A DNA stretch of 64,000 nt from IMG/VR virus record IMGVR_UViG_3300042901_002340; one strand, 5' to 3'. The notes under the pieces are model-generated. The model made no database searches. It was not told the origin of the DNA and saw only the letters and a program-made list of their open reading frames with translations. Shown piece after piece: positions 47,626 through 63,923 of this stretch. Source of the stretch: a virus (lineage: Duplodnaviria; Heunggongvirae; Uroviricota; Caudoviricetes). The position numbers were made by a program, and so were the translations under genes. How positions within the stretch are numbered: the stretch's first letter is position 1; the number at the start of each line of letters is the position of its first letter.

Positions 47626-48348
47626 TTACTTTTTACCTAGTATGTTTTTAGCGCTATCTGTTATAATGTCCAGATATTTTTTAGCTGTTGTTTTATTTTC
47701 GTCAGATTCTGATTCCATGTTTTGTAAGCATAATAATGCTCCCTGCTTATAAACTTTTATCGCCTGCATATAATAATCAAGAACTTGACCAATCTTCATG
47801 TAATATAAACCCCTGGATTTGTCTAGCTGTGAATTTACTTCCATTCTCAACTGTTTAGCCTCCTCCTCATATTGGGAATCTGTTATCTTTTTGGTGTCTT
47901 GTTTTGATTTTAATTCCTGCATATTTTTTTTAAATGCATCAAGTACCACGCCTTCGGGATCAAATGCATTCAATGATGATAGTTGGCCCTTGGATGAATT
48001 TTTCCAATCCCCACCAACGTAGTCACTTATCTTTTCAATCTCGTTCCACAATTTCTTATGTGATTCGTATGTTGGTTTTATATTTCCAATTAGAGCAACT
48101 ATTCTATTTGCTGCAGTACTTCCTTTATCTGGATTTATAGGAGCTACATTGGTAGACATACTATTTAGTACCGTTGATGCCTGTGTTAAAAATATGGTAT
48201 ACAATCCAGCTGAGTCGTCACCTGTATCTTGTTTAGGTATATCCATATTATCCCTATAAGGATCTCCTGTTTTTGACGGGGTGTTCTGTTCTACTGGATC
48301 TCCTTTTTTCTCATAGATTCTAAAATCGTGAAAGCTTTTTATTTTCAT
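47626..48348 (-). CDS. Hypothetical helical (internal head) protein
   Basis: [14 protein letters not shown]-terminus. Confidence 0.6.
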   Translation of the reverse strand: MKIKSFHDFRIYEKKGDPVEQNTPSKTGDPYRDNMDIPKQDTGDDSAGLYTIFLTQASTVLNSMSTNVAPINPDKGSTAANRIVALIGNIKPTYESHKKLWNEIEKISDYVGGDWKNSSKGQLSSLNAFDPEGVVLDAFKKNMQELKSKQDTKKITDSQYEEEAKQLRMEVNSQLDKSRGLYYMKIGQVLDYYMQAIKVYKQGALLCLQNMESESDENKTTAKKYLDIITDSAKNILGKK

Positions 48349-49772
48349 TATTTTACCTTTCCGCTAACTATATCTTGTATTTTAGCTTGTATTTTTGGGT
48401 CTGTCCAGTTTTTTACCATTGTTTGAAATTCAGAAGTTAGTTTTTTACCATCTTCCGTTGATTTAATAAGATCATCGCCAGTGCTTCCACCGATTATTTT
48501 TGCAGTTCTTCTTATTGCCTCTTCTGTATTCTTACCATATCCTCCATCAGCTTTTATTTTCTGACCCTCCGGAAGTATTTTATTTAATTCGTTTTGAAAA
48601 TCCTTAATTGTCTGATAATTAGGTCCGCTTTTTTTAAGATTTTCCTTCTCAACATTACCAGATTTTATTTCTTTAGGACCTTCTCCCTCTTTTTCTTCTG
48701 GTTTTTTCTCTTCCTCTTTCTTCTTAGCTTCGTCCTCTTTCTTCTTAGCTTCAGCAGCAGCTTGTTTATTAACAAGTTCCATTGCTTTTGTTTTAATCTC
48801 TTTAGCCTTACCTTCGACAGAAGTAAGACTATCTGTTACTTCCTTATCGATTTTAAGCTGGGCTGTAAATTTACCAGTTGCATCATTCATTGCTACTTGG
48901 ATCTTGTCAACTTCTCCGGGAATAGCTTCTAATCTATCCTTTCTTTCTCTCCTCTTCATTTTATCCCATGTATCATCTTTAGATAACTCATCGGCTAATT
49001 TATTCATTGAAGCATAAGCTGTTTGAGCTGCTTGCTTATAACTGCTATCCATTGTTGTGTCTGCAATTGTTTTAAATTGTGACATTTTTGGGGTTATAAT
49101 TGTGCTAAGTAACTCAGCTCTTCTTTCTGGGAATAGATTCTTGTCAAATAATCCTTCGTTTATTCTCTTATTTGAATTTACCCAATCTTGAAAAGATTCT
49201 CTAACAGGGGCTTTTGCTTTTTTAAGTTCAGCAGCAAGCTCAGTTACATATTTATTAATAGAAGCATCTATTCTTTTATTGATTCCATCTAATGATTTTT
49301 TACCCTCCTCTGATGTCACCAATGTGGTGTAAGCTTTCTTTAGATCGTCGCTAAATCCTTTAACATCACCTCCTATTTGTCCTTTATAGTCACCATTAAG
49401 TTTTTGTGATACTTTATTAAGAACCTCGGCCATAGTGTCGCCTTTTTTAGTTGCATCAGTTTGTTGTGATACACTTTGAAGATCTGCAACTACATCGGAA
49501 TAACCACCATCTATACCAGAAACTAATATAAAGTAGATATCAACAAAAGCATTATATAATTGGTCAGCTACAGAAGTTGCAGCTGTTGGTTTCGTTGAAT
49601 CCTCTTTCTTTTCCGCTGGTGCAGGTGTAGTTGGAGCTGGTGTGCTTCCCGCAGCTGGTGCAGGTGTAGTTGGAGCTGGTGTGCTTCCCGCAGCTGGTGC
49701 AGGTGTAGTTGGAGCTGGTGGATCTGCTTCGAATATTTTACTATATCCACTAAAATCTAATACTCTTTTCAT
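48348..49772 (-). CDS. Hypothetical internal head protein with PAPT repeats and C-terminal peptidoglycan-binding-like domain
   Basis: [15 protein letters not shown]; IKDFQNELN...[14 protein letters not shown] (DGxxGxxT); GATATATA at 49797-49804. Confidence 0.6.
49615..49720. repeat. About 2.7 perfect 39-bp tandem repeats ([13 protein letters not shown])
   Basis: gctggtgcaggtgtagttggagctggtgtgcttcccgca repeated. Confidence 0.95.
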
Positions 49773-49859
49773 ATTGTTTTGATATAAATTTTATTGTATA
49801 TATCAAACAAAAAAACCATAACTAGAAGCTATGGTAATAATTGGAATATTATGCTGATT

Positions 49860-50843
49860 TTATTTGGAATAGTGGGATATCCAATGATCTATCATCTCAT
49901 CCAGCATGGATTCAAAAGTGTATTTAGGTTGCCATCCGGTTTCTTTTCTAAGCTTTGTTGAGTCTCCTTTTAGATCCTCCAGTTCTTCAGGTCTTAGAAA
50001 TTTAGGATCCGTTTCTATAAACTCATTCCAATCAAGATTGAGTTTTCTGAATACGTACTCCACAAGATCTTGAACTGAATGGGATACACCGGTTGAACAA
50101 ACATAATCTCCGGATTTCCCCTGTTGTAACATAATCCACATTGCTTCAACATAATCCTTTGCATGTCCCCAATCTCTAGTCGCATTTAGATTGCCTAAAA
50201 CGAGCTTTTTTTCCAAACCCATATAAATCCTTACCGCGGTCTTGACAACCTTGTTTGTGACAAAATTCGTGCCTCTACGGGGTGATTCGTGATTGAATAG
50301 AATACCATTGCTTATGAACATTCCGTATGAATTTCTATAATTCCTGCATATGTTGTAGGAGAAAACTTTCGCGCACCCGTAAGGAGAAACTGGATTCATT
50401 GGGGTTGTCTCCCTTTGGTATCCATCTTCGTCTATAGAATTACCAAACATCTCCGATGAGGAAGCTTGATATATTTTTATTTTTGAATTGTGTAGCCTTA
50501 TGGCTTCTAATAGATTTAATGTGCCTATACCTGTTGCCTGTGCAGTATAAACTGGTTGATCGAATGATATTCTAACATGAGATTGTGCAGCTAAATTATA
50601 AACCTCCGAGGGATCGGATATTTTTAATGCATGTAACAAGGACGGCACATCCAAAAGATCTGCATATATCAGATTATCTTTTATCTTATTGTATATCGAA
50701 TCAAGTCTTGCTGTTTGGTTTTCTGATACTGAGTTTCTTTTGATAGTTCCAAATACCTCGTAACCTTTTTCTATTAGAAATTCCGCAAGATAACTACCAT
50801 CCTGGCCATTAATTCCCGTTATTAGTGCTCTTCTTTTTTCCAT
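49860..50843 (-). CDS. gmd: GDP-mannose 4,6-dehydratase
   Basis: ALITGINGQDGSYLAE, NLAAQSHV, YQASSSE, SPYGCAK, LFNHESPRRG, RDWGHAKDYV. Confidence 0.97.
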   Translation of the reverse strand: MEKRRALITGINGQDGSYLAEFLIEKGYEVFGTIKRNSVSENQTARLDSIYNKIKDNLIYADLLDVPSLLHALKISDPSEVYNLAAQSHVRISFDQPVYTAQATGIGTLNLLEAIRLHNSKIKIYQASSSEMFGNSIDEDGYQRETTPMNPVSPYGCAKVFSYNICRNYRNSYGMFISNGILFNHESPRRGTNFVTNKVVKTAVRIYMGLEKKLVLGNLNATRDWGHAKDYVEAMWIMLQQGKSGDYVCSTGVSHSVQDLVEYVFRKLNLDWNEFIETDPKFLRPEELEDLKGDSTKLRKETGWQPKYTFESMLDEMIDHWISHYSK

Positions 50844-50848
50844 GTATA

Positions 50849-51775
50849 TTATAGTCTAACTTTTGGATAGTTTTCATTAAACCAAGAGATTGATTTTTTA
50901 AGTCCATCCCTTATTGGTGTGAATTCAAAATCAGGAAACATTTCTCTAATTACTGAATTGTCGCTTGGTTTTCTATACTGACCATCTGGTTTGGTTTTAT
51001 CAAATATAATATTCCCATCATATTCCATTAAATCAGCAATGATTTCAACTACTGCACCTATTGATATTTCTTCAGATGTAGATAAAATTACTGGATCGGA
51101 TCCATCATAATTATCATATAAGAGCCTTGTTAATTTTGCAACATCTTCAGAAAATATAAATTCCCTTAGTGGTGTACCTGATCCCCATACTTTAAATTCT
51201 GTATTATTCTTTTTAGCTAGATACATTTTATGTATTAGCATAGGTATAACGTGTCCGGATTCTAAGTTATAATTATCCGCTGGTCCATATATGTTGCACG
51301 GTATTACACTAAAGTAATTTACTCCGTATTGCTCCTTATATGCTCTTATTTGAACTTCTGCCATTCTTTTCGCGTATGCGTATGCGTAATTAGATGGATG
51401 TGGTGGACCAAGATGTATTTTATCCGGTGTTAATGGGTATTCCACATTGTCTGGAAAAACACAGGTTGAAAGGAATGCAACAAATTTGTTTATTCCGAAT
51501 TTTCTTGCTGATTCTATTATTGCGGTATTCATGGATATATTTTCATAGAAGAATTTACCCTGTCCGTTCATATTACCCTGTATTCCACCAACCCTTGCTG
51601 CACAATGTATAATACCATCTGATAATTCTCCATTTTTCTCCGACCATTTAAAATGATCATCTATGTATTTTTGATTGATAAGATTTAGATCTGCTGATCC
51701 TAGTCTCTCGTATTCCTCCCCCTTAAATTGAGAACCAACCAGACCATAAGCACCTGTTACTAATATCTTTTTCAT
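50849..51775 (-). CDS. fcl: GDP-L-fucose synthase
   Basis: GLVGS, AARVGGI, LSTCVFP, YAYAKR, PCNIYGP, HVIP, WGSGTPLREF, KPDG. Confidence 0.95.
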   Translation of the reverse strand: MKKILVTGAYGLVGSQFKGEEYERLGSADLNLINQKYIDDHFKWSEKNGELSDGIIHCAARVGGIQGNMNGQGKFFYENISMNTAIIESARKFGINKFVAFLSTCVFPDNVEYPLTPDKIHLGPPHPSNYAYAYAKRMAEVQIRAYKEQYGVNYFSVIPCNIYGPADNYNLESGHVIPMLIHKMYLAKKNNTEFKVWGSGTPLREFIFSEDVAKLTRLLYDNYDGSDPVILSTSEEISIGAVVEIIADLMEYDGNIIFDKTKPDGQYRKPSDNSVIREMFPDFEFTPIRDGLKKSISWFNENYPKVRL

Positions 51776-52590
51776 TATATCATGTTTTTATATTTTTTTA
51801 CATATTCCTGGTTATTATAATATTCCAAGGTTTCATGTGTACTCAATGTCTCTAGATGGTTATAAATGTCCCAATTTTCTCTGAAAAAATTATTAGCAGG
51901 ACTGCTGTCATCCCCTCTATGATGTTCCAAATGGTAAACCATAAAACTATCAATCCATCTAACATTCAGCCCAAGTTTAACAAATCTCTTTCCTCTTTCT
52001 TTATCTTCAGGACCATAAGATACAAAATTCTCATTTTCCCCTCCGTATGCTCTATATGATTTTGTGTTAAAGAATATACAATGCCCATATTCTGTGTAAT
52101 AATCAGAAAACAGTGAAGGGTCCGAATCTATATAATTAAGATCCAAATTATTATCGAATAGATTGGAATGTATATTTGATGTCTGTAAAACCGTTCTCTG
52201 AGTCATTCCACCAAAAGAATATGGATATAAAACATCAACCCCCTCATCTAATATCATTCTTACAGATTCTGTATAAACATCGGGCTTCATTATAACATCT
52301 ACATCGTAATTAGCAACGACTGGAGTTTTAACTTCATCCAACATTATGTTTAGATACTTTGTCCTATGAAATGCTTCTTCAGGTTTTTCTACCCAATGCT
52401 TTATTTCTATATTTTTTAGATCATCCAGAAAATCTAGTTTAGATTCACCCTCGGATATTTCATATATAAAAACATTTGTTGCGAAATTTTTATTTATGTA
52501 ACTCAATACTGTTTTTGCGTTATTATACCTGTCCGGATGTTCTACTAAAACAGGTATAATGATTGTGCAATTTTTTAAATCTCTAACCAT
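51775..52590 (-). CDS. GT-A glycosyltransferase (GT2/GT7 C-terminal type)
   Basis: TIIIPV, YDVDV, GGENENFVSYGPEDKER, YHLEH. Confidence 0.8.
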   Translation of the reverse strand: MVRDLKNCTIIIPVLVEHPDRYNNAKTVLSYINKNFATNVFIYEISEGESKLDFLDDLKNIEIKHWVEKPEEAFHRTKYLNIMLDEVKTPVVANYDVDVIMKPDVYTESVRMILDEGVDVLYPYSFGGMTQRTVLQTSNIHSNLFDNNLDLNYIDSDPSLFSDYYTEYGHCIFFNTKSYRAYGGENENFVSYGPEDKERGKRFVKLGLNVRWIDSFMVYHLEHHRGDDSSPANNFFRENWDIYNHLETLSTHETLEYYNNQEYVKKYKNMI

Positions 52591-53302
52591 TTCTTAATTC
52601 TCTTTTTTTATCCTCCCCGCCTTTATCTAGAAAAACTATCGTTGGACTAGCTATGTCTTCATATTCGCTGGGGCAAGAAAACCCAACACCTAATATCGAG
52701 TCTGGCGGGTTGTCCATGAAATATCTATTTATGTGTGATTCGTCATGCCAGATTGCTATTATCCCGTCATTAAGATCCAGATCTATGTTTTCTTTAATTT
52801 TTTCTGACATTGTTATAAATGAATTGGAGTCAGCTCCAAAAAATCCTCCGCAAAAATAATGTTTATTTTTTCCCCTTTCTATAAATGCTCTTGATCTTGG
52901 ATTTAATTCTGGTGTTCCTAGTGGATTCCATTTTTCTATAAGTACAAATCCTGGATGTAATGTTCCTATTAATCCAAAATCTCTTTTTATTATATTTGAT
53001 AAGGGAAGTGGTTTTCTAAATATGCTATCGACATCTATATAGAATGAAAAATCAGATTCCAATATTTCTTTTTTTGCGGATAGGAAATAATGGAATCTTT
53101 TAAGTGTTGGCATAGGCCATGGTTCATTATCTATATGTACTTTTTTAATATCCGATGAATCAAAATCCTGGTCTGAATTGGTATACACTATAAAGATTAA
53201 TTCACAGTCATTAACAAACATATTTCTTGCTGATTCTATTATATCATCCAGAAATACTGTGTAATTATTAGTTGCTATGAGGTTTAATGTAACTTTTTTC
53301 AT
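52583..53302 (-). CDS. GT6 alpha-1,3-Gal/GalNAc transferase (ABO-like)
   Basis: IATNNY, WPMPTLKRF, IDVD, HPG, YFCGGFFG, AIWHDESHINRYF. Confidence 0.9.
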   Translation of the reverse strand: MKKVTLNLIATNNYTVFLDDIIESARNMFVNDCELIFIVYTNSDQDFDSSDIKKVHIDNEPWPMPTLKRFHYFLSAKKEILESDFSFYIDVDSIFRKPLPLSNIIKRDFGLIGTLHPGFVLIEKWNPLGTPELNPRSRAFIERGKNKHYFCGGFFGADSNSFITMSEKIKENIDLDLNDGIIAIWHDESHINRYFMDNPPDSILGVGFSCPSEYEDIASPTIVFLDKGGEDKKRELRNG

Positions 53303-53350
53303 TCACTTTTTAATTTTATAGTAAGAAACACTTTAATTATTTCCCGACCG

Positions 53351-53785
53351 TTAATATTTAGCTATAAAATCACTACATATACCAATACATAGATTTAATT
53401 GGTCGTCGTTTATTTCCGGCATAACTGCAATACTTTTATCTATTGGTTGCTTTCCTGGATATGCCCATATATAATTTGTCGAAGTTAGAGTGATTGTATC
53501 TGTTTCGTGCCAAAAATAATTAAAATCATATTGTGTGATTTTAAAAAAAATAACAGCATCCATATTTTTACAATGTATCCATAATTTGGTCAATCTGTCT
53601 CTAAACCATCTAAAATCTACACCATATTGAGGTTTATCGTGACCTAGATATAAAACACCGTCAACATACCACACATCAACTTCAACATCAAAACCTTTAT
53701 TTATTGCTAAATCAATATATGTTGGTTCATTTTCCCATGATTCCATTGGACCATTCGTGTTTCCTCTGTGTGCAATCAGTATCAT
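53351..53785 (-). CDS. Short glycerophosphodiester phosphodiesterase-like protein
   Basis: IAHRGN, EN, DVEVDV, LGHD, WIHCKN, GICSD. Confidence 0.75.
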   Translation of the reverse strand: MILIAHRGNTNGPMESWENEPTYIDLAINKGFDVEVDVWYVDGVLYLGHDKPQYGVDFRWFRDRLTKLWIHCKNMDAVIFFKITQYDFNYFWHETDTITLTSTNYIWAYPGKQPIDKSIAVMPEINDDQLNLCIGICSDFIAKY

Positions 53786-54753
53786 ATCTTGTCGATTAAA
53801 TTTATTTTATAGTAACTCTCTACCTCCTTTTGGTGTGTTCTATCTGGCGTGTTTATTGTGTTGTATGCCATATGTAAACAAAATCCATTCCTTATAAAAA
53901 CCATATGAAGATCGTTTTTTTCCATGTATAAATTGAGTGGAACCTCGTCATAAGAATCCCTAAATAAGCTGGAATCCTCTATTATTTTTTTCCACGTTTC
54001 TGTTTTTATGAAATAGAAGCTATTACAGAAGTATGGAAATTTTAAAATCTCCATTCTGTATTCATTTTTTTCAAGTAATCTTTTTGGGTTTTTACAGATA
54101 TATTCTGCTAATTTATTATGAGCATCTATAGAAACTCTAACTGGATGTATCCCTTTGTAATGATGATTTATTTTTTTAACATCATTATAGAAATCTATTC
54201 CCCAAGTTTTTCTTTCTTTGTTCAGTACCTCATAATTTGCACCCCATAAATTCTCTATTCTAGTATCAATAAAAGTGGAATGTAGAGATTCTTTTTCATC
54301 CGTTGTACAAAAGTCTTCTATGAAAAGATCCACCGAAGGTATACCATTAGAAATAAGTGGTGCTATAAATAAATTTTTTTCGTTATTTAATATTTCTAAA
54401 TTATCTATTACATAATCCCACAAATATGAGGATATTAATATATCATCATCCATTGAGCATGAATATCTATATTCAGAATTTATTAGATATTTTATTTTAT
54501 TCAGATAATTTGTTCCGGTCTCGTCATTTTTATCCAAACATACATCTATTGAGGATAAACCGGAACTGATAAGTTCGGATGATTTTTCCTTCCATATTGA
54601 TGCTTCGTGATTATTAGAAAAACAAATAACTATAATAACTCCTGTCTTATTTTTTATTTTTTTTATTTCGTCTATTGCTCTAGTAGTGAAATCGAGACGA
54701 TCAGTATTATGTACTAGAATGTTTACTTGTAGAATTTTTTCTTCGTTAACCAT
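53782..54753 (-). CDS. Uncharacterised GT-A-fold glycosyltransferase, paralog 1
   Basis: SMDDDI DxD-type motif; GIPSV, YKGIHPVR, DEVPLN. Confidence 0.6.
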   Translation of the reverse strand: MVNEEKILQVNILVHNTDRLDFTTRAIDEIKKIKNKTGVIIVICFSNNHEASIWKEKSSELISSGLSSIDVCLDKNDETGTNYLNKIKYLINSEYRYSCSMDDDILISSYLWDYVIDNLEILNNEKNLFIAPLISNGIPSVDLFIEDFCTTDEKESLHSTFIDTRIENLWGANYEVLNKERKTWGIDFYNDVKKINHHYKGIHPVRVSIDAHNKLAEYICKNPKRLLEKNEYRMEILKFPYFCNSFYFIKTETWKKIIEDSSLFRDSYDEVPLNLYMEKNDLHMVFIRNGFCLHMAYNTINTPDRTHQKEVESYYKINLIDKI

Positions 54754-55786
54754 AAAGTGAATTTATAAAATTTAACTCATATTCAGCAAGAGTTAAATCA
54801 GGCTTATCTATGTTACTCCCACCATTTATATTGTTTAGACACCATCTCCAATTATATGTTATATGTATTGCATAACCACCCATTATCACTAAGTGCGGAA
54901 GATTATTATCCCATGAATATCTATTAATTGGTACCTCGTCACATCCATCTATGATAAGATTTTCTACGTTTATTATTCTATCATAATTATCAGTTTTTAT
55001 AACAAAACACATATCGCAGAGATATGTCGAGGGATCCAATTTACTAATACTGCATTCTTTCTCTTCGAAGAATTTTTCCCTGTTATTTATTATGCCTTCA
55101 TTTATTAGAGAATTACCGAATCCATGTCTTATCGGATGGATTCCTTTATAGAACTTACAGTAATTATTCCCCGTTCTACCATTTCCCATATCTGGGAGTC
55201 CATCTGCATAAGAGTTTAGGTACGTGTAATAATTTTTATAATCCCAATCATTTTCATTATTAACAGATTGACAATTTAATGGTGTGTAATCCATTACGCC
55301 CTCTTGTATATGAAATAGACATTTTTTAAATTCTGATCTTATACGTGTTGCATCATCCTCGTTGAAGAAATCATCTATGAAATATTCTACCGATGGTATA
55401 CCTGTTGATATAGTTGGGGATAAAGTTAAAACAGAATCGTCATCAAGAACATTAAGATTAGATATAATATGATTTATTGTATATGCAGGGATAAGTACAT
55501 CATTATCCAATTTCAATATGTATTTATATCCATTGGTTTTTGAATATTCTATAGCATATCTGACTTTTGGTAGATAATTGCTCTGCGGACAATCGACGTA
55601 TGCGCACTCGAAGTCTATTCCGGAATCGGTGAGATTTTCTGTGTAGTAAGAAGAATCGGGATCAGAATTTACTATCAGTAACTTGATCTCTTTTATTTGC
55701 CCACATTTTTCTATTTCTTTTTTAATTTTATCAAAAACAAAATATCTATCGTTGCTCGTTAGATAAAATATTAATAGTTTATTCAT
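54746..55786 (-). CDS. Uncharacterised GT-A-fold glycosyltransferase, paralog 2
   Basis: KLDNDV; GIPSV, YKGIHPIR, DEVPIN. Confidence 0.6.
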   Translation of the reverse strand: MNKLLIFYLTSNDRYFVFDKIKKEIEKCGQIKEIKLLIVNSDPDSSYYTENLTDSGIDFECAYVDCPQSNYLPKVRYAIEYSKTNGYKYILKLDNDVLIPAYTINHIISNLNVLDDDSVLTLSPTISTGIPSVEYFIDDFFNEDDATRIRSEFKKCLFHIQEGVMDYTPLNCQSVNNENDWDYKNYYTYLNSYADGLPDMGNGRTGNNYCKFYKGIHPIRHGFGNSLINEGIINNREKFFEEKECSISKLDPSTYLCDMCFVIKTDNYDRIINVENLIIDGCDEVPINRYSWDNNLPHLVIMGGYAIHITYNWRWCLNNINGGSNIDKPDLTLAEYELNFINSLYG

Positions 55787-55848
55787 TTTTATTTTTTATA
55801 TTGTTGTATATTTCAGTCTTTTAAATGATATGCTGGTAAAATGTGATT

Positions 55849-57204
55849 TCATTCCTTATGATTTTCTAGATAGTGTCCTAAATCTTCAGGAGTTCCCAAC
55901 CCCCACATTCCTGTTGAATTGAATGTCCTTATTTTTAATCCTCTTTTTATAGCTTGATTAAATACAGGGCAAACATAGAATTCATTATTATTTCTTATAT
56001 TTAGATCTATCATTTCTTCTGCACATTCTACAAAATCTGATCCTCTTTTCCAGTAATAATATCCAACAGTTGCAATATCAGAGATTGGATTTTTCTCTGC
56101 AACTTCGGTCACCAATCCCATATCGTCAACTTTTGCAAATGACCATTTTGGGTGAGTTGCAGTAAAAGTTACTATTCCTCCATCCGCATTTGTCTCATTC
56201 ATTTTATACATAAACTCGTTGGAATCCCATTCTACAAACTGATCGGAGTTTGCAAAAAATAAAGGTGAATTATTATTTATATGTTCTTTTGCTAGCAAAC
56301 TGGTACAAGCTGCTCCCTCTGTTATACCATCTGTCTCGACTATTTTACATCCTGGTGTTATTAAGTTTAGGAGTGTATCCAAATTATATTTTTCCCTGTG
56401 TGATTTTTGTACTATATAGATATAGTTTGCATCGATGTTTAAATTTTCTACCACCAATTGGATCATTGGTTTTTTGTTAACCTCTATTAAAGGTTTAGGG
56501 AAAGTATAACCTGCTTTTTCGAATCTACTCCCCGCTCCCGCCATGGGAATTAATATATTTAGCTTTTCGTCTTTCCATTTAGGTATTAAATTCATAATTT
56601 TTTTGTTTATTTTATTTTTTATATTTATATAGGTTACATCTGCTGGCGAATCTACTCTTAATATATCGGCTCTACTCCTTGAAGCTGCCAGAAGCCCGTA
56701 GGGCGAATCCTCTATTATTAATGTTTCCTCTGGGATAAATCCTAATCTAGACATTGCTTTCCAATATATTTCAGGGTGTGGCTTGCTATTGATTACATCT
56801 TCATTAGATAATATAAGATCAAAATTTTGGATTATTCCCAATTTGGATAGAACTATTAATACTGTTTTTTTGATGCTATTTGAACAAACTGCAAGTTTGT
56901 AACCTTCGTCGGAAAGTCTTTGCATGCATATTTTTAGATTCTCTGATTCAACTATATTTAATAGTTCAGCTGATGTATATTTTTGTTTATCCTCCCATAT
57001 TTTTTTGTATGATTCCTTTGGTAATCCTTTTCTTTCTGTTAGAATCTCAAGTTTTTGGTTTGTTTTCAATCCATCATATATGGATAAATGTTCATCCCAA
57101 TTTATTGTATATTCTTCACCTAAAGCCCTATTTAGTGCATCATAGTGTATATTTTTAGCTTCTACTAGAACACCATCTAAATCAAATATTATCAATTTTT
57201 TCAT
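55849..57204 (-). CDS. HAD phosphatase - sugar-phosphate nucleotidyltransferase fusion
   Basis: FDLDGVL, KPHP, IEDS; then IPMAGAGSRF..GY..PKPLI, NSDQ, VAEK, LGTPEDL. Confidence 0.88.
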   Translation of the reverse strand: MKKLIIFDLDGVLVEAKNIHYDALNRALGEEYTINWDEHLSIYDGLKTNQKLEILTERKGLPKESYKKIWEDKQKYTSAELLNIVESENLKICMQRLSDEGYKLAVCSNSIKKTVLIVLSKLGIIQNFDLILSNEDVINSKPHPEIYWKAMSRLGFIPEETLIIEDSPYGLLAASRSRADILRVDSPADVTYINIKNKINKKIMNLIPKWKDEKLNILIPMAGAGSRFEKAGYTFPKPLIEVNKKPMIQLVVENLNIDANYIYIVQKSHREKYNLDTLLNLITPGCKIVETDGITEGAACTSLLAKEHINNNSPLFFANSDQFVEWDSNEFMYKMNETNADGGIVTFTATHPKWSFAKVDDMGLVTEVAEKNPISDIATVGYYYWKRGSDFVECAEEMIDLNIRNNNEFYVCPVFNQAIKRGLKIRTFNSTGMWGLGTPEDLGHYLENHKE

Positions 57205-57983
57205 TATCTATATCCTAAATATTTATAATTTTCTGGAGTTGACGATAAAGGTCTTGCTTCATTTCCGCTATGTGAATCATATTCTCTAAAAAAATCGGAG
57301 GAAAATTGTTTATCTTTTAATGATTTAACTATTGAAAACTCATTCATTACATATTTATGTTTTTTTACTAATGCCCTTCCTTCCCTAAAATCATTTATAT
57401 TCTTCAACCATACCGGAGGAAATCCTCCTAAGACTCTTTTACTCCATTCTATATCTTCTCCTTCACCCCACACGAAATTCTCATCCAATGGAAATTCATC
57501 CATTACCTTTTTCTTACCTATCCAAAAATTTCCTGGAATGTACATTCCTTCGGATCCTATGTAATCATACGGTAATATCACGTTTCCATATATCCTATCA
57601 TCTGGTAGTCCTATCCAATCTATTGATCTTTTCCCATCCGAGTTTAATATTCTATTCATACATAAATCCCAATCATCGCCGAATTTCAGAAAATTAAGAT
57701 ACCAATTTTCATCTAAAATAAGATAATCGTGCATATAAACTATGATATCGAATTTAGATTCCTTTGTTATTAAATTCTTTTTTTTCGTTATCCATAAATT
57801 TCTTATGGTCTCATCAAATGGTATGACTCTTATTTGCTCAGATTCTTCTAATGAACAATTACCTATTATCAATATCTCGTATAAATTTTTATCAATATTT
57901 TGGCCTTCTATGCTTAATATGACTGAATCTATATAACTGTTGGTGTTTTCGGAAGTTATTATACCGAATGTTATTCCTTTCAT
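57204..57983 (-). CDS. GT2-like glycosyltransferase
   Basis: ITFGIIT, KKN, YMHDY, LDE..WGEGEDIEWSKR. Confidence 0.75.
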   Translation of the reverse strand: MKGITFGIITSENTNSYIDSVILSIEGQNIDKNLYEILIIGNCSLEESEQIRVIPFDETIRNLWITKKKNLITKESKFDIIVYMHDYLILDENWYLNFLKFGDDWDLCMNRILNSDGKRSIDWIGLPDDRIYGNVILPYDYIGSEGMYIPGNFWIGKKKVMDEFPLDENFVWGEGEDIEWSKRVLGGFPPVWLKNINDFREGRALVKKHKYVMNEFSIVKSLKDKQFSSDFFREYDSHSGNEARPLSSTPENYKYLGYR

Positions 57984-57988
57984 ATTTT

Positions 57989-58669
57989 TTATCTTGTTAA
58001 TTTTACAAGTGTATGTGGGAGATTTTTATTTTTATACATCGATAATTTTTCTAAATAATTGGAATATTCGATTTCATTATTTTCTAATATTGCTTTTTTC
58101 TCTACCCCAAATCCAGTGAGGGATTTGCACTTTACGTTATACATTTTTTTATACGAAAATCCAAATTCTTTAGCTCTAAAACTTAAATCACCGTCGCAAT
58201 AATAGTATTTATATGACGTATCATACATTCCTATTTCTCTAAATATTTTTTTATTATAGATACCATAATTTAGAACCAATTCTTTTTCGTCATCATAAAT
58301 CACATATTCTTTATCATTTTTTCCCCTCCATGAGAAAATATAAAAATCTTCATTTGCTTCTTTTGATATCTCCTGAATTACTAGATCCCAATGGGTTTCC
58401 ATTATAACATCATCGTTCCATTGGCATACCCATTCATGAGAGGAATTTTCTATCCCCAGATTCATATAATGCCAATAATAGCTTCTTTTTCCACATTCTA
58501 TAAATTTAATTCTATCGTGATTTAAACTTTTTATGTATTCTATGGTACCATCGGTAGACCCACCATCAACTAAAACTAATTCTAAATATTTGTTAGAATT
58601 TACTGTGTTGTCGATTACCATTTTTAAATAATCTAATCTATCTAAAGTCCCAGTTACTATACTTATCAT
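57989..58669 (-). CDS. GT2 glycosyltransferase (start revised to 58669)
   Basis: ISIV, VDGGSTDGT, WNDD, GMYD, DGDLSFR. Confidence 0.85.
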   Translation of the reverse strand: MISIVTGTLDRLDYLKMVIDNTVNSNKYLELVLVDGGSTDGTIEYIKSLNHDRIKFIECGKRSYYWHYMNLGIENSSHEWVCQWNDDVIMETHWDLVIQEISKEANEDFYIFSWRGKNDKEYVIYDDEKELVLNYGIYNKKIFREIGMYDTSYKYYYCDGDLSFRAKEFGFSYKKMYNVKCKSLTGFGVEKKAILENNEIEYSNYLEKLSMYKNKNLPHTLVKLTR

Positions 58670-58671
58670 TT

Positions 58672-59295
58672 CTATTTTCTTATATAAAATGCATCTCCCC
58701 ATTCGAAAGGAGTAATTTCTGTTTCTACCCTTTCAAACCCATGCGAATTTAGAAAATCGTCCATTTCTTTTAATGTGTTATTTTCCTTATAAACTTCTCC
58801 TGTGTTTATTTCGGTGTATATGTATTTAATATTTTTAATATAATCACCAAGTCCCTTCAATGCTTTTAATTCCACCCCTTGTATGTCAAGATTTATAAAA
58901 TTGAATTCCTCCGGTGATATATTCTCTCTATCCATAAGACTTCTGATGGTTGATGTTTTCATTTTAATTTTATGTGTAAACTCAACATGTGGGTGGTATT
59001 CCAGATGTTTACCAAATTCTAATATTGATGACGATTGAAGATTATTTGTTATATTAAAATCCAATTCAATTCCATCCTCATCGTAAATTAGAGCATTAAA
59101 AAGTTTTTGATTTGAATCTTTTATTTTTTTACATCCATCCTCTATTAAAGAGGGATTTCCCTCTATCCATATTATATTATTTACCCCCATTCCCATGTAA
59201 TCGCTAATTTCTTCGAGCTCATGAGCCCCTACATGAATAATACCTGATGGTATAAATTGATATTTTTCACAGATATCTTTAAATTTTATTAGCAT
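58672..59295 (-). CDS. FkbM-family methyltransferase
   Basis: IIHVGAH, SSSILE, LDIQGVELKALKG, YIYTE, WGDAFY. Confidence 0.88.
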   Translation of the reverse strand: MLIKFKDICEKYQFIPSGIIHVGAHELEEISDYMGMGVNNIIWIEGNPSLIEDGCKKIKDSNQKLFNALIYDEDGIELDFNITNNLQSSSILEFGKHLEYHPHVEFTHKIKMKTSTIRSLMDRENISPEEFNFINLDIQGVELKALKGLGDYIKNIKYIYTEINTGEVYKENNTLKEMDDFLNSHGFERVETEITPFEWGDAFYIRK

Positions 59296-59302
59296 AGCTT
59301 AT

Positions 59303-60004
59303 TTATTTTATATTATTTTTAGTTAATATATCATGTACAGTAAATGGTAGTTTCTTTGCATTAAAATTACTTCCTGTATGAATTCTATGAGAAACTAGAA
59401 TTTTTTGTATATTATGGAATGTTTTGTTTTGTTTGTATAATCTTATCCAAAAGTCAAAATCTTCCATTCCCTCTACATCCTCGTCCCATCCCCCTATTTC
59501 TATTGCATCGGAGGTTCTAAATAAAGATGATGAATTTACTATCTGATTATGGCCAGCGAGAAATCCACTCTTTATGTCAATATCATTTTGATCTAAATTT
59601 AGAATGTTTGTTTTATTGTTATTTTTATCTATATAATATGCTAGTGTACCAATTACATCAAAATTTTTACAAATAGCTACCTGTTCAGATAATTTATTTA
59701 TTTCCCATATATCATCTCCGTCTATCAGTGAGATATATTCGGTATCTATTATTTTTAGTAGCTTATTAAGAGTTTTTGCCTTACCTTTATCATCACCATA
59801 GTCAACTATCGTGAATCTCTGATCTGTCTCTATTAGTGATTTTGCTATTTCTTTGCTAGAATCCACCGTCCCGTTGAATGCTATTATACATTTGAAGTCT
59901 TTGAATTTCTGAGCTAGTATACTTTCTATTGTGTATCCAAGGTATGCCTCATCATTATATACGGGCAGAAGTATTGTTACGCTATCCATCATATAATAAT
60001 CCAA
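59303..60004 (-). CDS. GT2 glycosyltransferase
   Basis: LLPVYN, IESILAQ, IDGDD, KLSEQ, EDFDFWIR. Confidence 0.88.
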   Translation of the reverse strand: MDYYMMDSVTILLPVYNDEAYLGYTIESILAQKFKDFKCIIAFNGTVDSSKEIAKSLIETDQRFTIVDYGDDKGKAKTLNKLLKIIDTEYISLIDGDDIWEINKLSEQVAICKNFDVIGTLAYYIDKNNNKTNILNLDQNDIDIKSGFLAGHNQIVNSSSLFRTSDAIEIGGWDEDVEGMEDFDFWIRLYKQNKTFHNIQKILVSHRIHTGSNFNAKKLPFTVHDILTKNNIK

Positions 60005-60783
60005 TTTTCACAATATACATCACTTGGATTCTTTTGCATATAAGGTCCAAACCAATTTGAAGGTGCTATCGTTTTTTTACTGTTAGCTAACCAAGAACCC
60101 CACCAACTGAATGAACTATTTGCTATTATATGACCATGGCATAATGACATTAAATACATATCAATATAGGGGCTTCCTGATTCAACTATTGTTGAATTAT
60201 TGATGTGTAGGTTCTGTCTGCACCATTCTGGATCATCGGAAAATATATAAAAATTTGAATTTGTATCGAAGTGTCCTGCTGCCTTCATATAATATTCTAC
60301 GCTCTGAGTTGGATGATGTCCAGGTGAAGTTAGGTAATCTCCTCTTCTAACATGAACAGAAACACCGTTTTCTATATCTATATGACTCTTTGAATCATCT
60401 ATAATATCATCTCTGAATGTGAATATTTCTCTTATTTCTGAATCTATGAACTTGAAGTACTTTTCGGTTTGAAAGTATCCCGATAATGAAGTCGAATCTG
60501 GTAGTGTTCCCGTTTGTGTATTAAATCCGAAATCTGTTTCGTAATATATGTGATTTATCGGTATTTCACCGCTTGTCTTTATTAGATTTTTTGGTATATT
60601 AAAACATTCCAATAATTTGCATCCATCATATGAATTCGGATCTGAACCCTGCTGAAATCTTTCAGCGGGAAAAACTGGATCAAATCCAAGTTTTCTAGCT
60701 ATTCCTATGGTTGAAGCAAATTGAAACATTTGATTACCAAATCTTCCCATGTGTCCAATATTATTAAAAGTTATCATAATCAA
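59989..60783 (-). CDS. GT11 alpha-1,2-fucosyltransferase
   Basis: GRFGNQMFQ, GYFQTEKYF, HVRRGDY, FSDDPEW, NSSFSWWG. Confidence 0.93.
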   Translation of the reverse strand: MIMITFNNIGHMGRFGNQMFQFASTIGIARKLGFDPVFPAERFQQGSDPNSYDGCKLLECFNIPKNLIKTSGEIPINHIYYETDFGFNTQTGTLPDSTSLSGYFQTEKYFKFIDSEIREIFTFRDDIIDDSKSHIDIENGVSVHVRRGDYLTSPGHHPTQSVEYYMKAAGHFDTNSNFYIFSDDPEWCRQNLHINNSTIVESGSPYIDMYLMSLCHGHIIANSSFSWWGSWLANSKKTIAPSNWFGPYMQKNPSDVYCENWIII

Positions 60784-60793
60784 TTATTTATAA

Positions 60794-60857
60794 TTTTACT
60801 GCTTTTTTACATTTTAGTTCCGTTTCATAGGAACAAAAAGTAACAAATAATCTAAAA
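60794..60857. promoter_or_regulatory. Back-to-back class-2 promoters: GGAAC-N17-GTAAAA (-) and GGAAC-N17-CTAAAA (+)
   Basis: - strand 60821-60794; + strand 60830-60857. Confidence 0.65.
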
Positions 60858-60873
60858 ATATAAAAGTGAACTT

Positions 60874-61530
60874 ATGAAAAAATTATCGGTTGTTGTGCCA
60901 TATAGAGATAGGGAGGAACACCTTAAGCAATTTGTGCCATATATGGAGAAATGGTTAAAGGATGAAGAAATACCATTTGAGATAATAATAGTAAACCAGA
61001 CGGAAGGAAAGGGATTCAATAGAGCAAAGCTTTTAAATATAGGATTCAAGGAAACTGAAAATTGCGATTATCACGTTTTTCATGATGTTGATATGTTACC
61101 TACTGATTCGGATTATGATTATACTAAAGGTCCAACACATCTTGCCTCGCAAGCTGAACAGTTTGGATATAAACTTCCCTATGATGGGTACTTTGGTGGT
61201 GTTACCATCTTTGATAAACCTAGCTTTCTTAAGATAAATGGCTATTCTAATGATTATTGGGGATGGGGTGCGGAAGATGATGACGTTCTATATAGATGCT
61301 CGATAATGGAAATACCTATATATAGAAAACAGTGCAGATATAAATCATTGGATCACGAAAGAAACATAGAAAGAGAACCGTATATAAAAAACATACACAG
61401 ACTCAATAAATTTATAACTAACGCTTCGGAGAATTCCGTAATGGGGGACGGTTTATCTAATTTAGAATACACAAAAATCGAGGATAAGATGCTAACAGAG
61501 CATACAAGATTTATAACTGTTGAGATTTAA
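60874..61530 (+). CDS. GT7 beta-1,4-galactosyltransferase-like
   Basis: VVVPYRDREEHL, FNRAKLLNIG, FHDVD, YFGGV, INGYSNDYWGWGAEDDD. Confidence 0.92.
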   Translation: MKKLSVVVPYRDREEHLKQFVPYMEKWLKDEEIPFEIIIVNQTEGKGFNRAKLLNIGFKETENCDYHVFHDVDMLPTDSDYDYTKGPTHLASQAEQFGYKLPYDGYFGGVTIFDKPSFLKINGYSNDYWGWGAEDDDVLYRCSIMEIPIYRKQCRYKSLDHERNIEREPYIKNIHRLNKFITNASENSVMGDGLSNLEYTKIEDKMLTEHTRFITVEI

Positions 61531-61739
61531 GATTCTCTTTTAAGATCACAGAGTACCCTATCGACAGTATTTATTAGATGTTCCATATTTTTACTTAGAG
61601 TATCAGGATCATCATTTTTTAGAAGATAGCTTATGGTCTCTAAAGATCCTAATGAATATGCTATTTTATTTTTAAGTATATAGTTCTCCCTTAGAAGATT
61701 GTTTGGTTCTGCTGAATTGTCGTCTGGTAAAATTCCCAT
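61527..61739 (-). CDS. Small hypothetical protein
   Basis: ATG start, helical, converges on GT7. Confidence 0.5.
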   Translation of the reverse strand: MGILPDDNSAEPNNLLRENYILKNKIAYSLGSLETISYLLKNDDPDTLSKNMEHLINTVDRVLCDLKRES

Positions 61740-61829: not shown

Positions 61830-63923
61830 TTATTTTTTTGGTTTAGTTATCTTGACCTTTATTGGTGGCTGAATTCCTCCATCCTTTGTTTTATCGAATG
61901 CTAATGTTATTGTATCTCCCTCTGATACTTTAGTCTGTACCATCAAATCAGCTAAGGTGTCCTCAATATATTTTTGTATGATTCTTTTTAATGGTCTTGC
62001 TCCAAATTTTGGATTGAATCCTTCCTCGCATATCTTTTCCTTAAGGTCAGATGAAATTTTTATTTTGTAACCCAATGACTCTATTCTAGGTAAAGTTTTA
62101 TTTAATTCGACTTCAAGAATATCCAACATGTTTTCTTTACCTAATTCTTTAAAGTAAACGATGTCGTCCAATCTATTAATAAACTCGGGCGAGAATTTTT
62201 TTTCTAATTCTTTCTTTAGTAAAGCTTCGTTCTCAAATTCTTTATTATTTGATTTGGTTGATGTTACAAATCCGCTGCTTGTCCCAAATTCCGATAGTTT
62301 TCTTTGACCAACATTAGAGGTTAGTATAATCAAGGTGTTTTTGAAATTTATCTTTCTACCCTGTCCGTCTGTTAAATGACCTTCGTCAAGAATCTGTAGA
62401 AGTGTATTAAAGATTTCTGGATGTGCTTTTTCAATCTCATCAAAAAGAACTATTGAGTATGGCTTTCTTCTAACTTTTTCTGTTAGCTGTCCGCCATCTT
62501 CGTGACCAACGTATCCTGGAGGTGCTCCGAACATTTTAGTAGCATCAAACTTTTCACCATATTCACTCATGTCGATTCTTATTAGTGAATCACTTTCACC
62601 AAACATATACTTAGCAAGTTCTTTAGCTAATTGAGTTTTACCAACTCCTGTTGGACCAAGAAATAGAAATGTACCGATGGGTTTGTTTGGATCTTTTATT
62701 CCCATCCGATTTCTTAGAACTGCTCTGGATACTTTTTCTATGACATGATCCTGACCGATAACCTTACCTTTAAGCTCTGTGCTCATGTTAGCTAGCTTGA
62801 AGTTTTCGTCTTGATTTACTTTCTTAAGCGGAACCCCTGACATCATAGCTACAACCTCTGCAACCTTCTCTCCGTCTACTGTTTTCTTTTTTCCTTTTAA
62901 CCTTGTCTCCCAAAGTTTTATTTCCGATTCCAGCGACACCTCAGTGTGTCTTTGTAGATCTCTAAATTTTGCTGCACCTTCATAATCCTGTCTTTTTACA
63001 GCGAGTTGTTTGTCAATTGCTATTTGAGCTAAATTCTTTTCCAGCTTGGTTATGGTATCCGGTACTTTAACGTCGCTTAGCTGTGTTCTACTGCCCGCTT
63101 CGTCTAAAGCATCTAAAGCCTTGTCCGGAAAGTTTCGGTCCGTTATATAGCGTTCTGTGAGCTTTACGCAGTTGATTATGGCATCGTCTGTATACTTTAC
63201 GTTGTGATGATCCTCATATTTGGATTTTACACTGTTTAGTATATCTATTGTGGTTTCCATATCGGGTGGATTCACAAGTACCTTCTGGAATCTTCTTTCT
63301 AGAGCTCCGTCTTTTTCTATATGCTGACGGTATTCATTTAGTGTTGTTGCACCAATACATTGGATTTCACCTCTAGCTAAAGCAGGCTTGAACATATTTG
63401 AAGCATCTAAAGATCCCGAAGATCCTCCAGCCCCGATTATGGTGTGTAGCTCATCGATAAAAATTATGATGTCTCTATTCTTCTTAAGTTCGTCTATGAT
63501 TGATTTAATTCTTTCCTCGAATTGTCCTCTGTATTTTGTTCCAGCCACAAGAGAACCCATATCCAGAGTTAGAATTCTTTTGTTTAGTAGGGTCTGTGAA
63601 ACTTTTCTTTGTACTATCTTTAGCGCTAATCCCTCAGCTATTGCAGATTTACCAACTCCTGGTTCACCGATAAGAACCGGATTATTCTTCTTTCTCCTGG
63701 AGAGAATCTGGGAGATTCTCTCTATCTCAGGATCTCTGCCTATAATAGGATCGAGTTCACCTCTTGATGCGAGATCAGTTAAATCCGTTGAATGGGAATC
63801 AAGCACTGGGGTTTTACCTGTTCCTTTTTTGGACTTATACTCGCTTTGGTGGTCGTCCTCGTTCCCATCCGTGTATTGATCCATGGATGGTGAAATTTTC
63901 TTTTTGTAGTCTCCTCTTTTCAT
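61830..63923 (-). CDS. clpC: ClpC-like Hsp100 ATPase lacking the N-terminal Clp domain
   Basis: LDPIIGR, GEPGVGKS, FIDELH, DGALERRF, UVR M-domain QDYEGAAKFRD, GPTGVGKT, RIDMSEY, GAPPGYVG, GARPLKR. Confidence 0.9.
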   Translation of the reverse strand: MKRGDYKKKISPSMDQYTDGNEDDHQSEYKSKKGTGKTPVLDSHSTDLTDLASRGELDPIIGRDPEIERISQILSRRKKNNPVLIGEPGVGKSAIAEGLALKIVQRKVSQTLLNKRILTLDMGSLVAGTKYRGQFEERIKSIIDELKKNRDIIIFIDELHTIIGAGGSSGSLDASNMFKPALARGEIQCIGATTLNEYRQHIEKDGALERRFQKVLVNPPDMETTIDILNSVKSKYEDHHNVKYTDDAIINCVKLTERYITDRNFPDKALDALDEAGSRTQLSDVKVPDTITKLEKNLAQIAIDKQLAVKRQDYEGAAKFRDLQRHTEVSLESEIKLWETRLKGKKKTVDGEKVAEVVAMMSGVPLKKVNQDENFKLANMSTELKGKVIGQDHVIEKVSRAVLRNRMGIKDPNKPIGTFLFLGPTGVGKTQLAKELAKYMFGESDSLIRIDMSEYGEKFDATKMFGAPPGYVGHEDGGQLTEKVRRKPYSIVLFDEIEKAHPEIFNTLLQILDEGHLTDGQGRKINFKNTLIILTSNVGQRKLSEFGTSSGFVTSTKSNNKEFENEALLKKELEKKFSPEFINRLDDIVYFKELGKENMLDILEVELNKTLPRIESLGYKIKISSDLKEKICEEGFNPKFGARPLKRIIQKYIEDTLADLMVQTKVSEGDTITLAFDKTKDGGIQPPIKVKITKPKK

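Follow-up and report, generated by a model that had tools for sequence, protein, structure and literature searches.

A phage operon with enzymes predicted to assemble a fucosylated glycan with a blood-group H-like cap

A glycan-assembly operon in a huge tailed phage

In a window of 64,000 nucleotides (nt) from the IMG/VR virus record IMGVR_UViG_3300042901_002340 (430,120 bp, with direct terminal repeats; the window, meaning the whole stretch analysed, is the reverse strand of positions 223430-287429), we identified an island of about 12 kb, at window positions 49860-61530, that is with high probability a real glycan operon with a fucosylated product. The window encodes a tail sheath, a large terminase, a DnaB-like helicase, an SbcC-like protein and a UvsX-like recombinase, and the tail sheath and large terminase together with the replication and recombination genes identify the source as a huge tailed phage. 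We propose that the island is a discrete phage-encoded operon for glycan assembly in the cytoplasm, in which gmd and fcl would supply GDP-L-fucose from host GDP-mannose; a fixed pair of GT7 and GT11 transferases would build a Fuc-alpha1,2-Gal-beta1,4-(GlcNAc-like) H-type cap, as read from residues and synteny; and a DXD-type GT6 with its coupled 271-aa (amino acid) partner would add an alpha1,3-linked HexNAc or hexose, giving an A/B-like, partly methylated terminus. The genes between the fixed ends would form an exchangeable cassette that determines the remainder of the glycan. The acceptor, the least certain step, would be a virion protein, most plausibly the poly-Thr tracts of proteins from the tail and baseplate region, so that the phage would decorate its own particles as chloroviruses and some mycobacteriophages do. 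An H-type cap, with an A/B-like extension in this phage, is the reading that best fits the conserved residues and synteny. The presence of Fuc-alpha1,2-Gal in the product is likely, an exact A/B type-2 determinant is doubtful, and the proposal as a whole (operon, H/A-type cap and virion acceptor) falls somewhat short of an even chance.

The features that carry this proposal are, by window position:
49815-49835, minus strand: intrinsic terminator that ends the island past gmd
49860-50843, minus strand: GDP-mannose 4,6-dehydratase (gmd), 327 aa, PF16363 at 396 bits
50849-51775, minus strand: GDP-L-fucose synthase (fcl/GMER), 308 aa, top PDB match human 4e5y at 8e-79
51775-52590, minus strand: GT-A-type glycosyltransferase, 271 aa, with DVD and GPEDxE motifs, overlapping GT6 by 8 nt
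52583-53302, minus strand: GT6 retaining alpha1,3-glycosyltransferase of the minimal metal-dependent DXD phage type, 239 aa, PF03414
59989-60783, minus strand: GT11 alpha1,2-fucosyltransferase-like protein, 264 aa, PF01531 at 101 bits (cut-off 23.9)
60784-60873, unstranded: divergent GT11/GT7 control region with a GTTCC-N8-GGAAC palindrome
60874-61530, plus strand: GT7 beta1,4-galactosyltransferase-like protein, 218 aa, a bare catalytic domain, PF13733 and PF02709
61791-61828, unstranded: bidirectional intrinsic terminator with a 16-17 bp stem that parts ClpB from the island

Every gene of the island lies on the minus strand except GT7, and the strong terminators at both ends make the island a transcription unit of its own. 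Between them, nine soluble transferases of GT-A or GT-B type, an FkbM-family methyltransferase and a HAD-nucleotidyltransferase fusion appear from the gene layout to be co-transcribed. The genes named in a first-pass annotation of this DNA (gmd, fcl, GT6, GT11, GT7, FkbM and the HAD-NTP transferase) were all recovered in place from open reading frames (ORFs) and Pfam matches, and its remark that the enzymes look soluble is borne out by a hydrophobicity scan, in which no island protein has a membrane-helix-like hydrophobic segment. Pairwise dN/dS against one relative ranges from 0.02 to 0.18 across all shared island genes, a range that points to purifying selection on them. Megablast of the island against deposited phage genomes gave no match.

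GDP-fucose supply and the three terminal transferases

The gmd product scores 394.5 bits against TIGR01472, slightly below the cut-off of 415, and is 92% identical to its counterpart in the closest complete relative (G001, 434.5 kb). In fcl the catalytic motifs are intact, with S-x-C as LSTC, YxxxK as YAYAKRM and GHV(I/L)P as GHVIP, which supply the Ser/Cys, Tyr/Lys and His residues. By PDB match fcl is nearer to the human GDP-L-fucose synthase than to the E. coli enzyme (1.6e-43), and against NF047922 it scores 208.7 bits (1.3e-61), under the equivalog cut-off of 500. The island therefore holds what defines the de novo GDP-L-fucose pathway, a 4,6-dehydratase together with an epimerase/reductase that has the Ser-Tyr-Lys triad and the Cys/His pair, and from their sequences gmd and fcl can be expected to turn host GDP-mannose into GDP-L-fucose.

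GT7 lies well above both family thresholds (PF13733 at 75.7 bits with a cut-off of 27, PF02709 at 78.9 bits with a cut-off of 23), and its residues 3-216 align with bovine beta4GalT1 (1tvy, 7e-43). Retained are the DVD metal site, the equivalents of Y286 and Y289 in the LPYxxYFGG donor region, the WGWGAEDDD motif, the equivalent of His347, and Arg359; the second Tyr of the LPYxxYFGG region is the residue that picks Gal over GalNAc in vertebrate beta4GalT. Comparison of the GlcNAc pocket with bovine R359/F360/I363 shows that Arg is kept, Phe is replaced by Leu and Ile by Phe, with the hydrophobic character retained. A search of 50,697 deposited phage genomes gave no GT7 match, even with the threshold at E 0.01. 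Short-form homologues (218-221 aa) occur in more than 1000 metagenomic clusters, GT7 is present on 20 viral contigs, some metagenomic homologues sit on contigs of 260-345 kb, and 185,579 species genomes yielded only five copies, each on a short contig of a metagenome-assembled genome (MAG). The protein belongs to a short GT7 lineage that has so far turned up almost exclusively on contigs of viruses or on short contigs of MAGs. For both fcl and GT7, the nearest solved structures by sequence are vertebrate rather than bacterial enzymes.

All three alpha1,2-fucosyltransferase motifs are present in GT11 (HVRRGDY, SDDPEW and NSSFSWWG), which is 40-45% identical to the GT11 proteins of cyanophages. 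A sequence search found no solved-structure relative of GT11, and its acceptor residues could therefore not be read. GT6 occurs in 72 deposited phage records and GT11 in 103, most of them from cyanophages.

GT6 scores 82.4 bits against PF03414 (curated cut-off 25), and its best PDB relatives are BoGT6a (4ayj, 2e-35) and human GTA/GTB (1.5e-17). Most bacterial GT6 proteins are metal-independent NXN enzymes with a membrane-binding tail (PMC3516806). The island protein carries DVD where BoGT6a has NAN and thus groups with the P-SSM2 and Parachlamydia enzymes in the minimal, metal-dependent clade (PMC3516806), and sequence comparison shows that the C-terminal membrane-binding domain of bacterial GT6 is absent. 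The catalytic Glu (human E303, BoGT6a E192) is present in IWHDESH. The equivalents of BoGT6a His122, Thr134, Tyr153, Trp189 and Glu192 are kept, as are His at A1 and Gly at A2, all of them positions through which 2'-fucosyl acceptors are bound (PMC3516806). The DXD-type enzyme of Parachlamydia, PaGT6, transfers GalNAc to the H antigen and is inactive on N-acetyllactosamine (PMC3516806). The donor loop of the island protein reads CGGF, with Gly as in GalNAc-using enzymes and matching neither LGGF (A) nor MGAF (B); GalNAc, Gal and Glc are all candidate donors. The 271-aa protein, which has weak matches to PF02709 (6.5e-5) and PF10111, is encoded next to GT6 in every GT6-bearing relative examined (L004, L005 and L025). 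The genome has another, divergent GT6-like gene, remote from the island (L002:1423-2271, record positions of about 3.8-4.4 kb) and 24% identical to the island GT6; it has DADT, an altered WHDES (NDES) and another donor loop, and resembles the fused GT6 domain of the protein P0223.

The first-pass annotation had called this set formally sufficient for synthesis of an ABO(H)-type antigen. That is fair for the three terminal linkages, whose catalytic residues are intact, and does not extend to the first sugar or to the GT6 donor, which the set leaves uncovered.

Fixed ends and exchangeable cassettes

Among relatives whose ClpB is 68-96% identical (L003-L008), the order ClpB, 70-aa gene, GT7, GT11 is constant, and GT11 and the divergent GT7 adjoin in all six relatives that retain the ClpB end. 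At the opposite end fcl and gmd are constant among the closer relatives, and the genes in between differ. One relative has between the fixed ends only GT6, the 271-aa partner, two FkbM-like genes and one GT2; another has the full island gene set minus one GT2 and FkbM. In the closest complete relative the position of GT6 is taken by GT2, GT2, GT10, GT25, a nucleotidyltransferase fusion and a methyltransferase (the relative with GT10 plus GT25 is IMGVR_UViG_3300032236_001850), and its GT11 is only 59% identical. The absence of GT6 from that genome makes the A/B-type cap an optional cassette. In a relative at greater distance the locus encodes an aminotransferase, an acetyltransferase-like protein, a 2-oxoglutarate (2OG) oxygenase, a GT31-type galactosyltransferase and several GT2 genes. 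The middle module of the island (the GDPD-like gene, the 323/346-aa pair, the HAD-nucleotidyltransferase and the 259-aa transferase) moves as a unit into the unrelated contigs L019 and L025. GT6 does not travel with GT11 and fcl in one fragment (G006), which carries GT6 and gmd with no fcl, GT11 or GT7 in 151 kb, but this contig is only 52% complete and begins inside the locus.

G+C content is 33-35% across most of the window and falls to 29-31% between 52 and 60 kb; the variable cassette (52000-60000) thus stands at 29-31% against 34-37% in its flanks, a pattern like that of horizontally exchanged O-antigen loci.

On a bolder view, which we consider quite improbable, a clade of phages of about 430 kb would have a polymorphic blood-group-like locus whose caps are shown on mucin-like poly-Thr tail tracts, as a phage serotype system. 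The equally speculative corollary is that the cassettes (GT6; GT10 with GT25; GT31 with an amino-sugar pathway) would turn the H-type cap A/B-like, Lewis-like or into something else.

Remaining genes of the island and its neighbours

The other genes of the island, all between GT6 and GT11, are:
53351-53785, minus strand: 144-aa protein with GDPD-like N-terminal motifs (HRG, ExD, HD), a weak assignment
53782-54753, minus strand: 323-aa divergent GT-A with a DDD motif, a 29% identical paralogue of the 346-aa protein
54746-55786, minus strand: 346-aa divergent GT-A glycosyltransferase; AF2 model from 39 homologues, pLDDT 94.8
55849-57204, minus strand: 451-aa fusion of HAD and NTP_transferase, Pfam HAD_2 at 107 bits and NTP_transferase at 41.6 bits
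57204-57983, minus strand: 259-aa GT-A/GT2-like protein, Pfam GT2 only at E 0.23, ESM Atlas TM 0.64-0.70 to GT2 clusters
57989-58702, minus strand: GT2 glycosyltransferase, 237 aa, PF00535 at 51.6 bits; an internal Met may be the true start
58672-59295, minus strand: FkbM-family methyltransferase, 207 aa, PF05050 at 49.5 bits and TIGR01444 at 48.5 bits
59303-60004, minus strand: GT2 glycosyltransferase, 233 aa, PF00535 at 78 bits, 78-79% identical in L004 and L005

Six further genes had been described as glycosyltransferase-like, and all six stand, two of them above the Pfam GT2 cut-off and four by motif, fold or paralogy. The phosphodiesterase named alongside them exists as a gene, with a weaker claim to that function: the 144-aa protein has no match in Pfam or NCBIfam, and its profile against the PDB reaches GDPD 7e0v at E 0.011 over only about 50 residues. 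Foldseek comparison of the 346-aa model with the PDB returned GT-A proteins for all top matches (COLGALT1, K4CP, ppGalNAcT, TarP and GnT-I), and D94/D96 (the DxD motif) are invariant among the aligned homologues. The nearest Atlas clusters are 98-100% viral, from Uroviricota and Nucleocytoviricota, and the family has been seen only in viruses. In the fusion protein, the HAD half is of the beta-phosphoglucomutase or sugar-phosphatase type and the nucleotidyltransferase half of the sugar-1-phosphate type; the two halves are separate genes in L009. An attempt to assign a sugar to this enzyme failed, the top match (PDB 4evw, 2e-20) being an uncharacterised pyrophosphorylase and the matches to HddC and ManC weak.

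Two further genes and ClpB flank the island:
48348-49772: u474, 474 aa, without a family match, the first gene past the island terminator
61527-61739, minus strand: conserved 70-aa protein on the ClpB side of the island, with 70-73% identity among close relatives and 47% to its L006 counterpart
61830-63923: ClpB/Hsp104-like double AAA+ ATPase, 697 aa, a neighbour of the glycan locus in six relatives (L003-L008)

The N-terminus of u474 has a 12-residue repeat in three copies followed by a Lys/Glu-rich helical region, and the gene is preceded by a putative late motif described below. As a candidate glycan acceptor u474 was dropped, because the repeat is degenerate and without Thr in L004 and is missing altogether in L025.

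Control regions, timing and host

The GTTCC-N8-GGAAC palindrome between GT11 and GT7 is kept in four genomes (the island and L003, L004 and L005), with each arm giving GGAAC to one of the divergent genes; it may serve as one operator for both genes or represent two back-to-back -35 elements of the extracytoplasmic-function (ECF) type. The 8-mer GATATATA, the putative late motif, has 11 sites in the window (612 to 49797), all 11 on the coding strand. Its count is not above chance, and most copies lie no more than about 35 nt upstream of a start codon; this placement and strand bias would fit a late-promoter role. One copy, at 49797-49804, stands just past the island terminator and ahead of u474. 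No copy was found within the island, which is therefore probably not expressed late; middle expression would be plausible. The first-pass annotation had called the island middle-expressed, of which the not-late part agrees with the lack of internal motifs and with the GGAAC palindrome.

A Bacteroidota-type TAnnTTTG motif lies 33 nt upstream of ClpB, the sole gene here with that motif, and a scan for sigma-70-type promoters gave sites no more numerous than chance. The flanking TAnnTTTG motif, together with the lack of Shine-Dalgarno sequences, suggests a Bacteroidota-like rather than a cyanobacterial host.

Acceptor and alternative readings

Virion proteins are the acceptor that we favour, with confidence slightly below evens. 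Several considerations argue for a non-membrane, protein acceptor: the 430 kb hold no ORF with five or more hydrophobic segments; GT6 has no membrane-binding tail; chloroviruses, with similar enzymes, glycosylate their particles, a parallel that may carry over; and the viral clusters nearest to the 346-aa transferase include those of giant eukaryotic viruses, which by analogy would also point to protein. Capsid glycosylation is reported in giant eukaryotic viruses, and to our knowledge DNA glycosylation is not. The solubility of the enzymes, which had been taken to favour the virion, does not do so, because bacterial O-antigen transferases of the same families are also soluble or peripheral, act on lipid-linked acceptors and could pass their products to host machinery.

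Candidate acceptors, which also speak for a protein, lie beside a baseplate-wedge gene, where a 1590-aa protein (L026:2812-7584, record 318811-323583) has a Thr/Ser-rich tract of about 60 aa near its C-terminus. The next gene encodes a 308-aa protein with a T9 tract (L026:7598-8524), and the one after it a 321-aa protein (phrog_4417, P0142; L026:8566-9531) that is modelled with a retaining GT-A fold of GT8/GT24-like type (pLDDT 95.9) and matches WbbM, the UGGT catalytic domain, XXYLT1, LgtC and glycogenin. We regard the poly-Thr tail-region proteins and the adjacent retaining GT-A protein as candidate acceptors and a candidate transferase only. The phrog_4417 family has 840 representatives and is elsewhere fused to GT6, GT7C-like and methyltransferase domains.

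Several observations weigh against the proposal as we have stated it. For the glycan, position A7 of GT6 carries an ambiguous Phe, intermediate between the Ala/Ile found in H-acceptor enzymes and the Trp of alpha3GalT and matching neither, and the nearest NCBIfam model for GT6 is named a glucosyltransferase (173 bits, under the cut-off of 250). A CAZy family does not fix specificity, and GT7 includes xylose- and GalNAc-directed enzymes. GT6 is missing from the closest complete relative, and the G006 fragment has GT6 and gmd but no fcl, GT11 or GT7 in its 151 kb. No initiating transferase was identified in the genome, so that the pathway is not self-contained as had been claimed; GDP-mannose and UDP-sugars must come from the host. 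For the acceptor, the island has no GATATATA and stands beside replication and recombination genes (UvsX-, DnaB- and SbcC-like) rather than structural genes, and the poly-Thr genes are about 35 kb beyond the window start, roughly 90 kb from the island. A possible fusion link between P0142 and the island through the GT6-bearing P0223 is weak, because the GT6 domain of P0223 resembles the second, divergent GT6 of the genome and not the island type.

The strongest alternative, which we hold to be somewhat unlikely, is remodelling of the host envelope, in which the soluble transferases would operate from the cytoplasmic side on host lipid A-core or undecaprenyl-linked intermediates and flippases and ligases of the host would export the product; the altered surface of the infected cell would, for example, block superinfection or avoid grazers, which is the usual published reading of cyanophage 'LPS' (lipopolysaccharide) clusters. 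Bacterial homologues of gmd, fcl, GT11, GT6 and GT2 are generally known to serve synthesis of O-antigen, capsule or lipooligosaccharide (LOS) as soluble or peripheral enzymes, with E. coli O86 a cited example (PMC3516806), and the P-SSM2 cluster and its relatives have been so interpreted (PMC7824862, PMC9602691, PMC12801897). The lack of GATATATA in the island, its position beside early/middle-type genes, and a cassette variability like that of O-antigen loci also agree with this alternative. However, a genome-wide hydrophobicity scan of the 430 kb found no ORF with five or more hydrophobic segments, hence no phage flippase, polymerase, WecA-type initiator or oligosaccharyltransferase, which extends to the whole genome the earlier remark that flippase and polymerase are absent. 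Neither an initiating phosphoglycosyl transferase nor a ligase was found, and searches of the genome for the Bac_transf and Polysacc_synt families gave no match; these searches are insensitive, and we give their negatives little weight because the same search missed the island's own NTP_transferase. Furthermore, GT6 does not have the domain with which its bacterial counterparts bind membranes, a cell that is no longer growing under lytic infection would presumably renew little of its surface glycan, and no published experiment was found that shows such a role for phage clusters of the P-SSM2 type.

It is unlikely that the enzymes, though of the assigned families, make an unrelated fucosylated or deoxyhexose glycan of non-ABH type, or a soluble oligosaccharide or small-molecule glycoside. 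Specificity within GT2, GT7, GT11 and GT6 is not predictable from the family alone, the nucleotide sugar of the HAD-nucleotidyltransferase fusion could not be assigned, and G006 pairs GT6 with gmd in the absence of fcl and GT11 from its 151 kb, all of which would suit such a product; against it, GT6 retains the residues for a Fuc-alpha1,2-Gal acceptor, GT7 retains the Arg of the GlcNAc pocket, and the tight GT11-GT7 adjacency persists among relatives.

A short glycan on a hydroxymethylated phage base, blocking host nucleases, is very unlikely: we know of no report of fucose on DNA, and GT6, GT11 and GT7 retain residues for sugar acceptors, not for bases. Phage GT-A and GT-B relatives of LPS and teichoic-acid transferases do put mono- to trisaccharides on 5-hydroxymethylcytosine (5hmC) (bioRxiv 10.1101/2023.12.21.572611), the genome has a second ORF of thymidylate-synthase (TS) fold with an RSCDY motif, and the island adjoins the UvsX-, DnaB- and SbcC-like genes, but the nine transferases go far beyond those trisaccharides, the same preprint does not mention fucose on DNA, and over 100 kb separate the TS-fold gene from the island, whereas such pathways usually cluster within about 10 kb (bioRxiv 10.1101/2023.12.21.572611). 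This TS-fold ORF (637 aa, G000 record 396502-398415) is apparently split by an intein-like insert with Cys ... HNC boundaries.

Significance

For a fucosylated glycan with an H-type cap, the island offers three small soluble enzymes with residue-level predictions for consecutive steps (Gal-beta1,4, Fuc-alpha1,2 and an alpha1,3 cap), which makes an old question testable, and natural allelic cassettes (GT6, GT10 or GT31) that predict different antigens. We see the main points of interest in the GT6/GT10/GT31 cassette polymorphism, the viral GT7 lineage and this testable question. If virions are decorated, virus-encoded glycosylation of particles, so far known for giant eukaryotic viruses and a few mycobacteriophages, would reach huge environmental phages as well. 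If the predicted activities are true, the enzymes would be compact tools, suited to bacterial expression, for the synthesis of H, A/B or Lewis-type structures. The short viral GT7 lineage bears on the spread of eukaryote-type glycosyltransferase families, as has been argued for GT6, and a serotype system, if real, would draw on such eukaryote-type families, of which several are barely known, or not known at all, from cultured phages.

Comparison with known systems

The human ABO(H) pathway (B4GALT1 of GT7, FUT1/FUT2 of GT11 and ABO of GT6) uses the three CAZy families found in the island, and the catalytic and key substrate-binding residues agree. The human Golgi enzymes have a membrane anchor and stem, whereas the island proteins are bare soluble catalytic domains. 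Bacterial mimicry loci (E. coli O86, and the enzymes BoGT6a and PaGT6) resemble the island in joining gmd and fcl with GT11 and GT6 in one blood-group-determinant locus, and PaGT6 is of the same minimal DXD type as the island GT6. Bacterial O-antigen loci carry wzx, wzy and an initiating transferase; the phage genome, in contrast, lacks the initiating phosphoglycosyl transferase, flippase and polymerase that define a Wzx/Wzy-dependent locus.

In chlorovirus PBCV-1, virus-encoded gmd and GDP-fucose synthase, soluble glycosyltransferases and sugar methylation lead to fucosylated, methylated virion glycans. Chloroviruses and giant viruses differ from the phage in their eukaryotic hosts, in using other glycosyltransferase families and in having N-linked glycans on a defined capsid protein. 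The clusters that act on 5hmC are similar in having phage GT-A relatives of LPS and teichoic-acid enzymes, sometimes with epimerases, that build short glycans; they differ in lying beside a methyltransferase/dioxygenase or a TS-type gene, in having one to three transferases and in having no fucose pathway (bioRxiv 10.1101/2023.12.21.572611).

The closest known system is the cluster of cyanophage P-SSM2. It has been known since 2005, so that phage clusters with gmd, GT11 and GT6 go back two decades; we found no report of an identified product or acceptor for any of them. The first-pass annotation had described GT6 and GT11 as known from large phages individually, which is too narrow: P-SSM2 has both, together with gmd, fcl-like, FkbM-like and GT25 genes, in one cluster, and because this similar cluster is published the claim of novelty has to be trimmed. 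In that cluster (PSSM2_257-271, AY939844.2) GT6 and GT11 are 1.5 kb apart, accompanied by gmd, two epimerases, two GT2, GT1, an FkbM-like gene and GT25. The 15-gene 'LPS biosynthesis' cluster has been described as polymorphic between related cyanophages, with host-surface modification proposed as its role (Iyer and colleagues, PMC7824862), and similar statements have been made for the clusters of S-SCSM1 and S-SCSM2R (PMC9602691, PMC12801897).

The island conforms to the P-SSM2 type in having contiguous nucleotide-sugar enzymes and several paralogous transferases, gmd, GT11 and GT6 included. P-SSM2, and likewise P-SSM5, S-SCSM1 and S-SM2, resemble it as jumbo-myovirus clusters of about 12 kb with gmd, fcl-like, GT2, GT11, FkbM-like and DXD-type GT6 genes. 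Five island proteins have P-SSM2 homologues, with identities of 49% for gmd, 32% for fcl, 40% for GT11, 40% for FkbM (PSSM2_267) and 38% for GT6. P-SSM2 has GT25, a candidate beta1,4-galactosyltransferase, in place of the island's GT7; it additionally has GT1 and a dioxygenase, and it is without the middle module of the island (the GDPD-like, 323/346-aa, HAD-nucleotidyltransferase and 259-aa genes). Its host is a cyanobacterium, whereas that of the island phage is suggested to be Bacteroidota-like, and the island locus has fixed ends (ClpB-GT7-GT11 and fcl-gmd). What appears to be new in comparison with P-SSM2 is the viral GT7 lineage, a locus that varies by cassette, the Bacteroidota-like host motifs and the conserved control region between GT11 and GT7.

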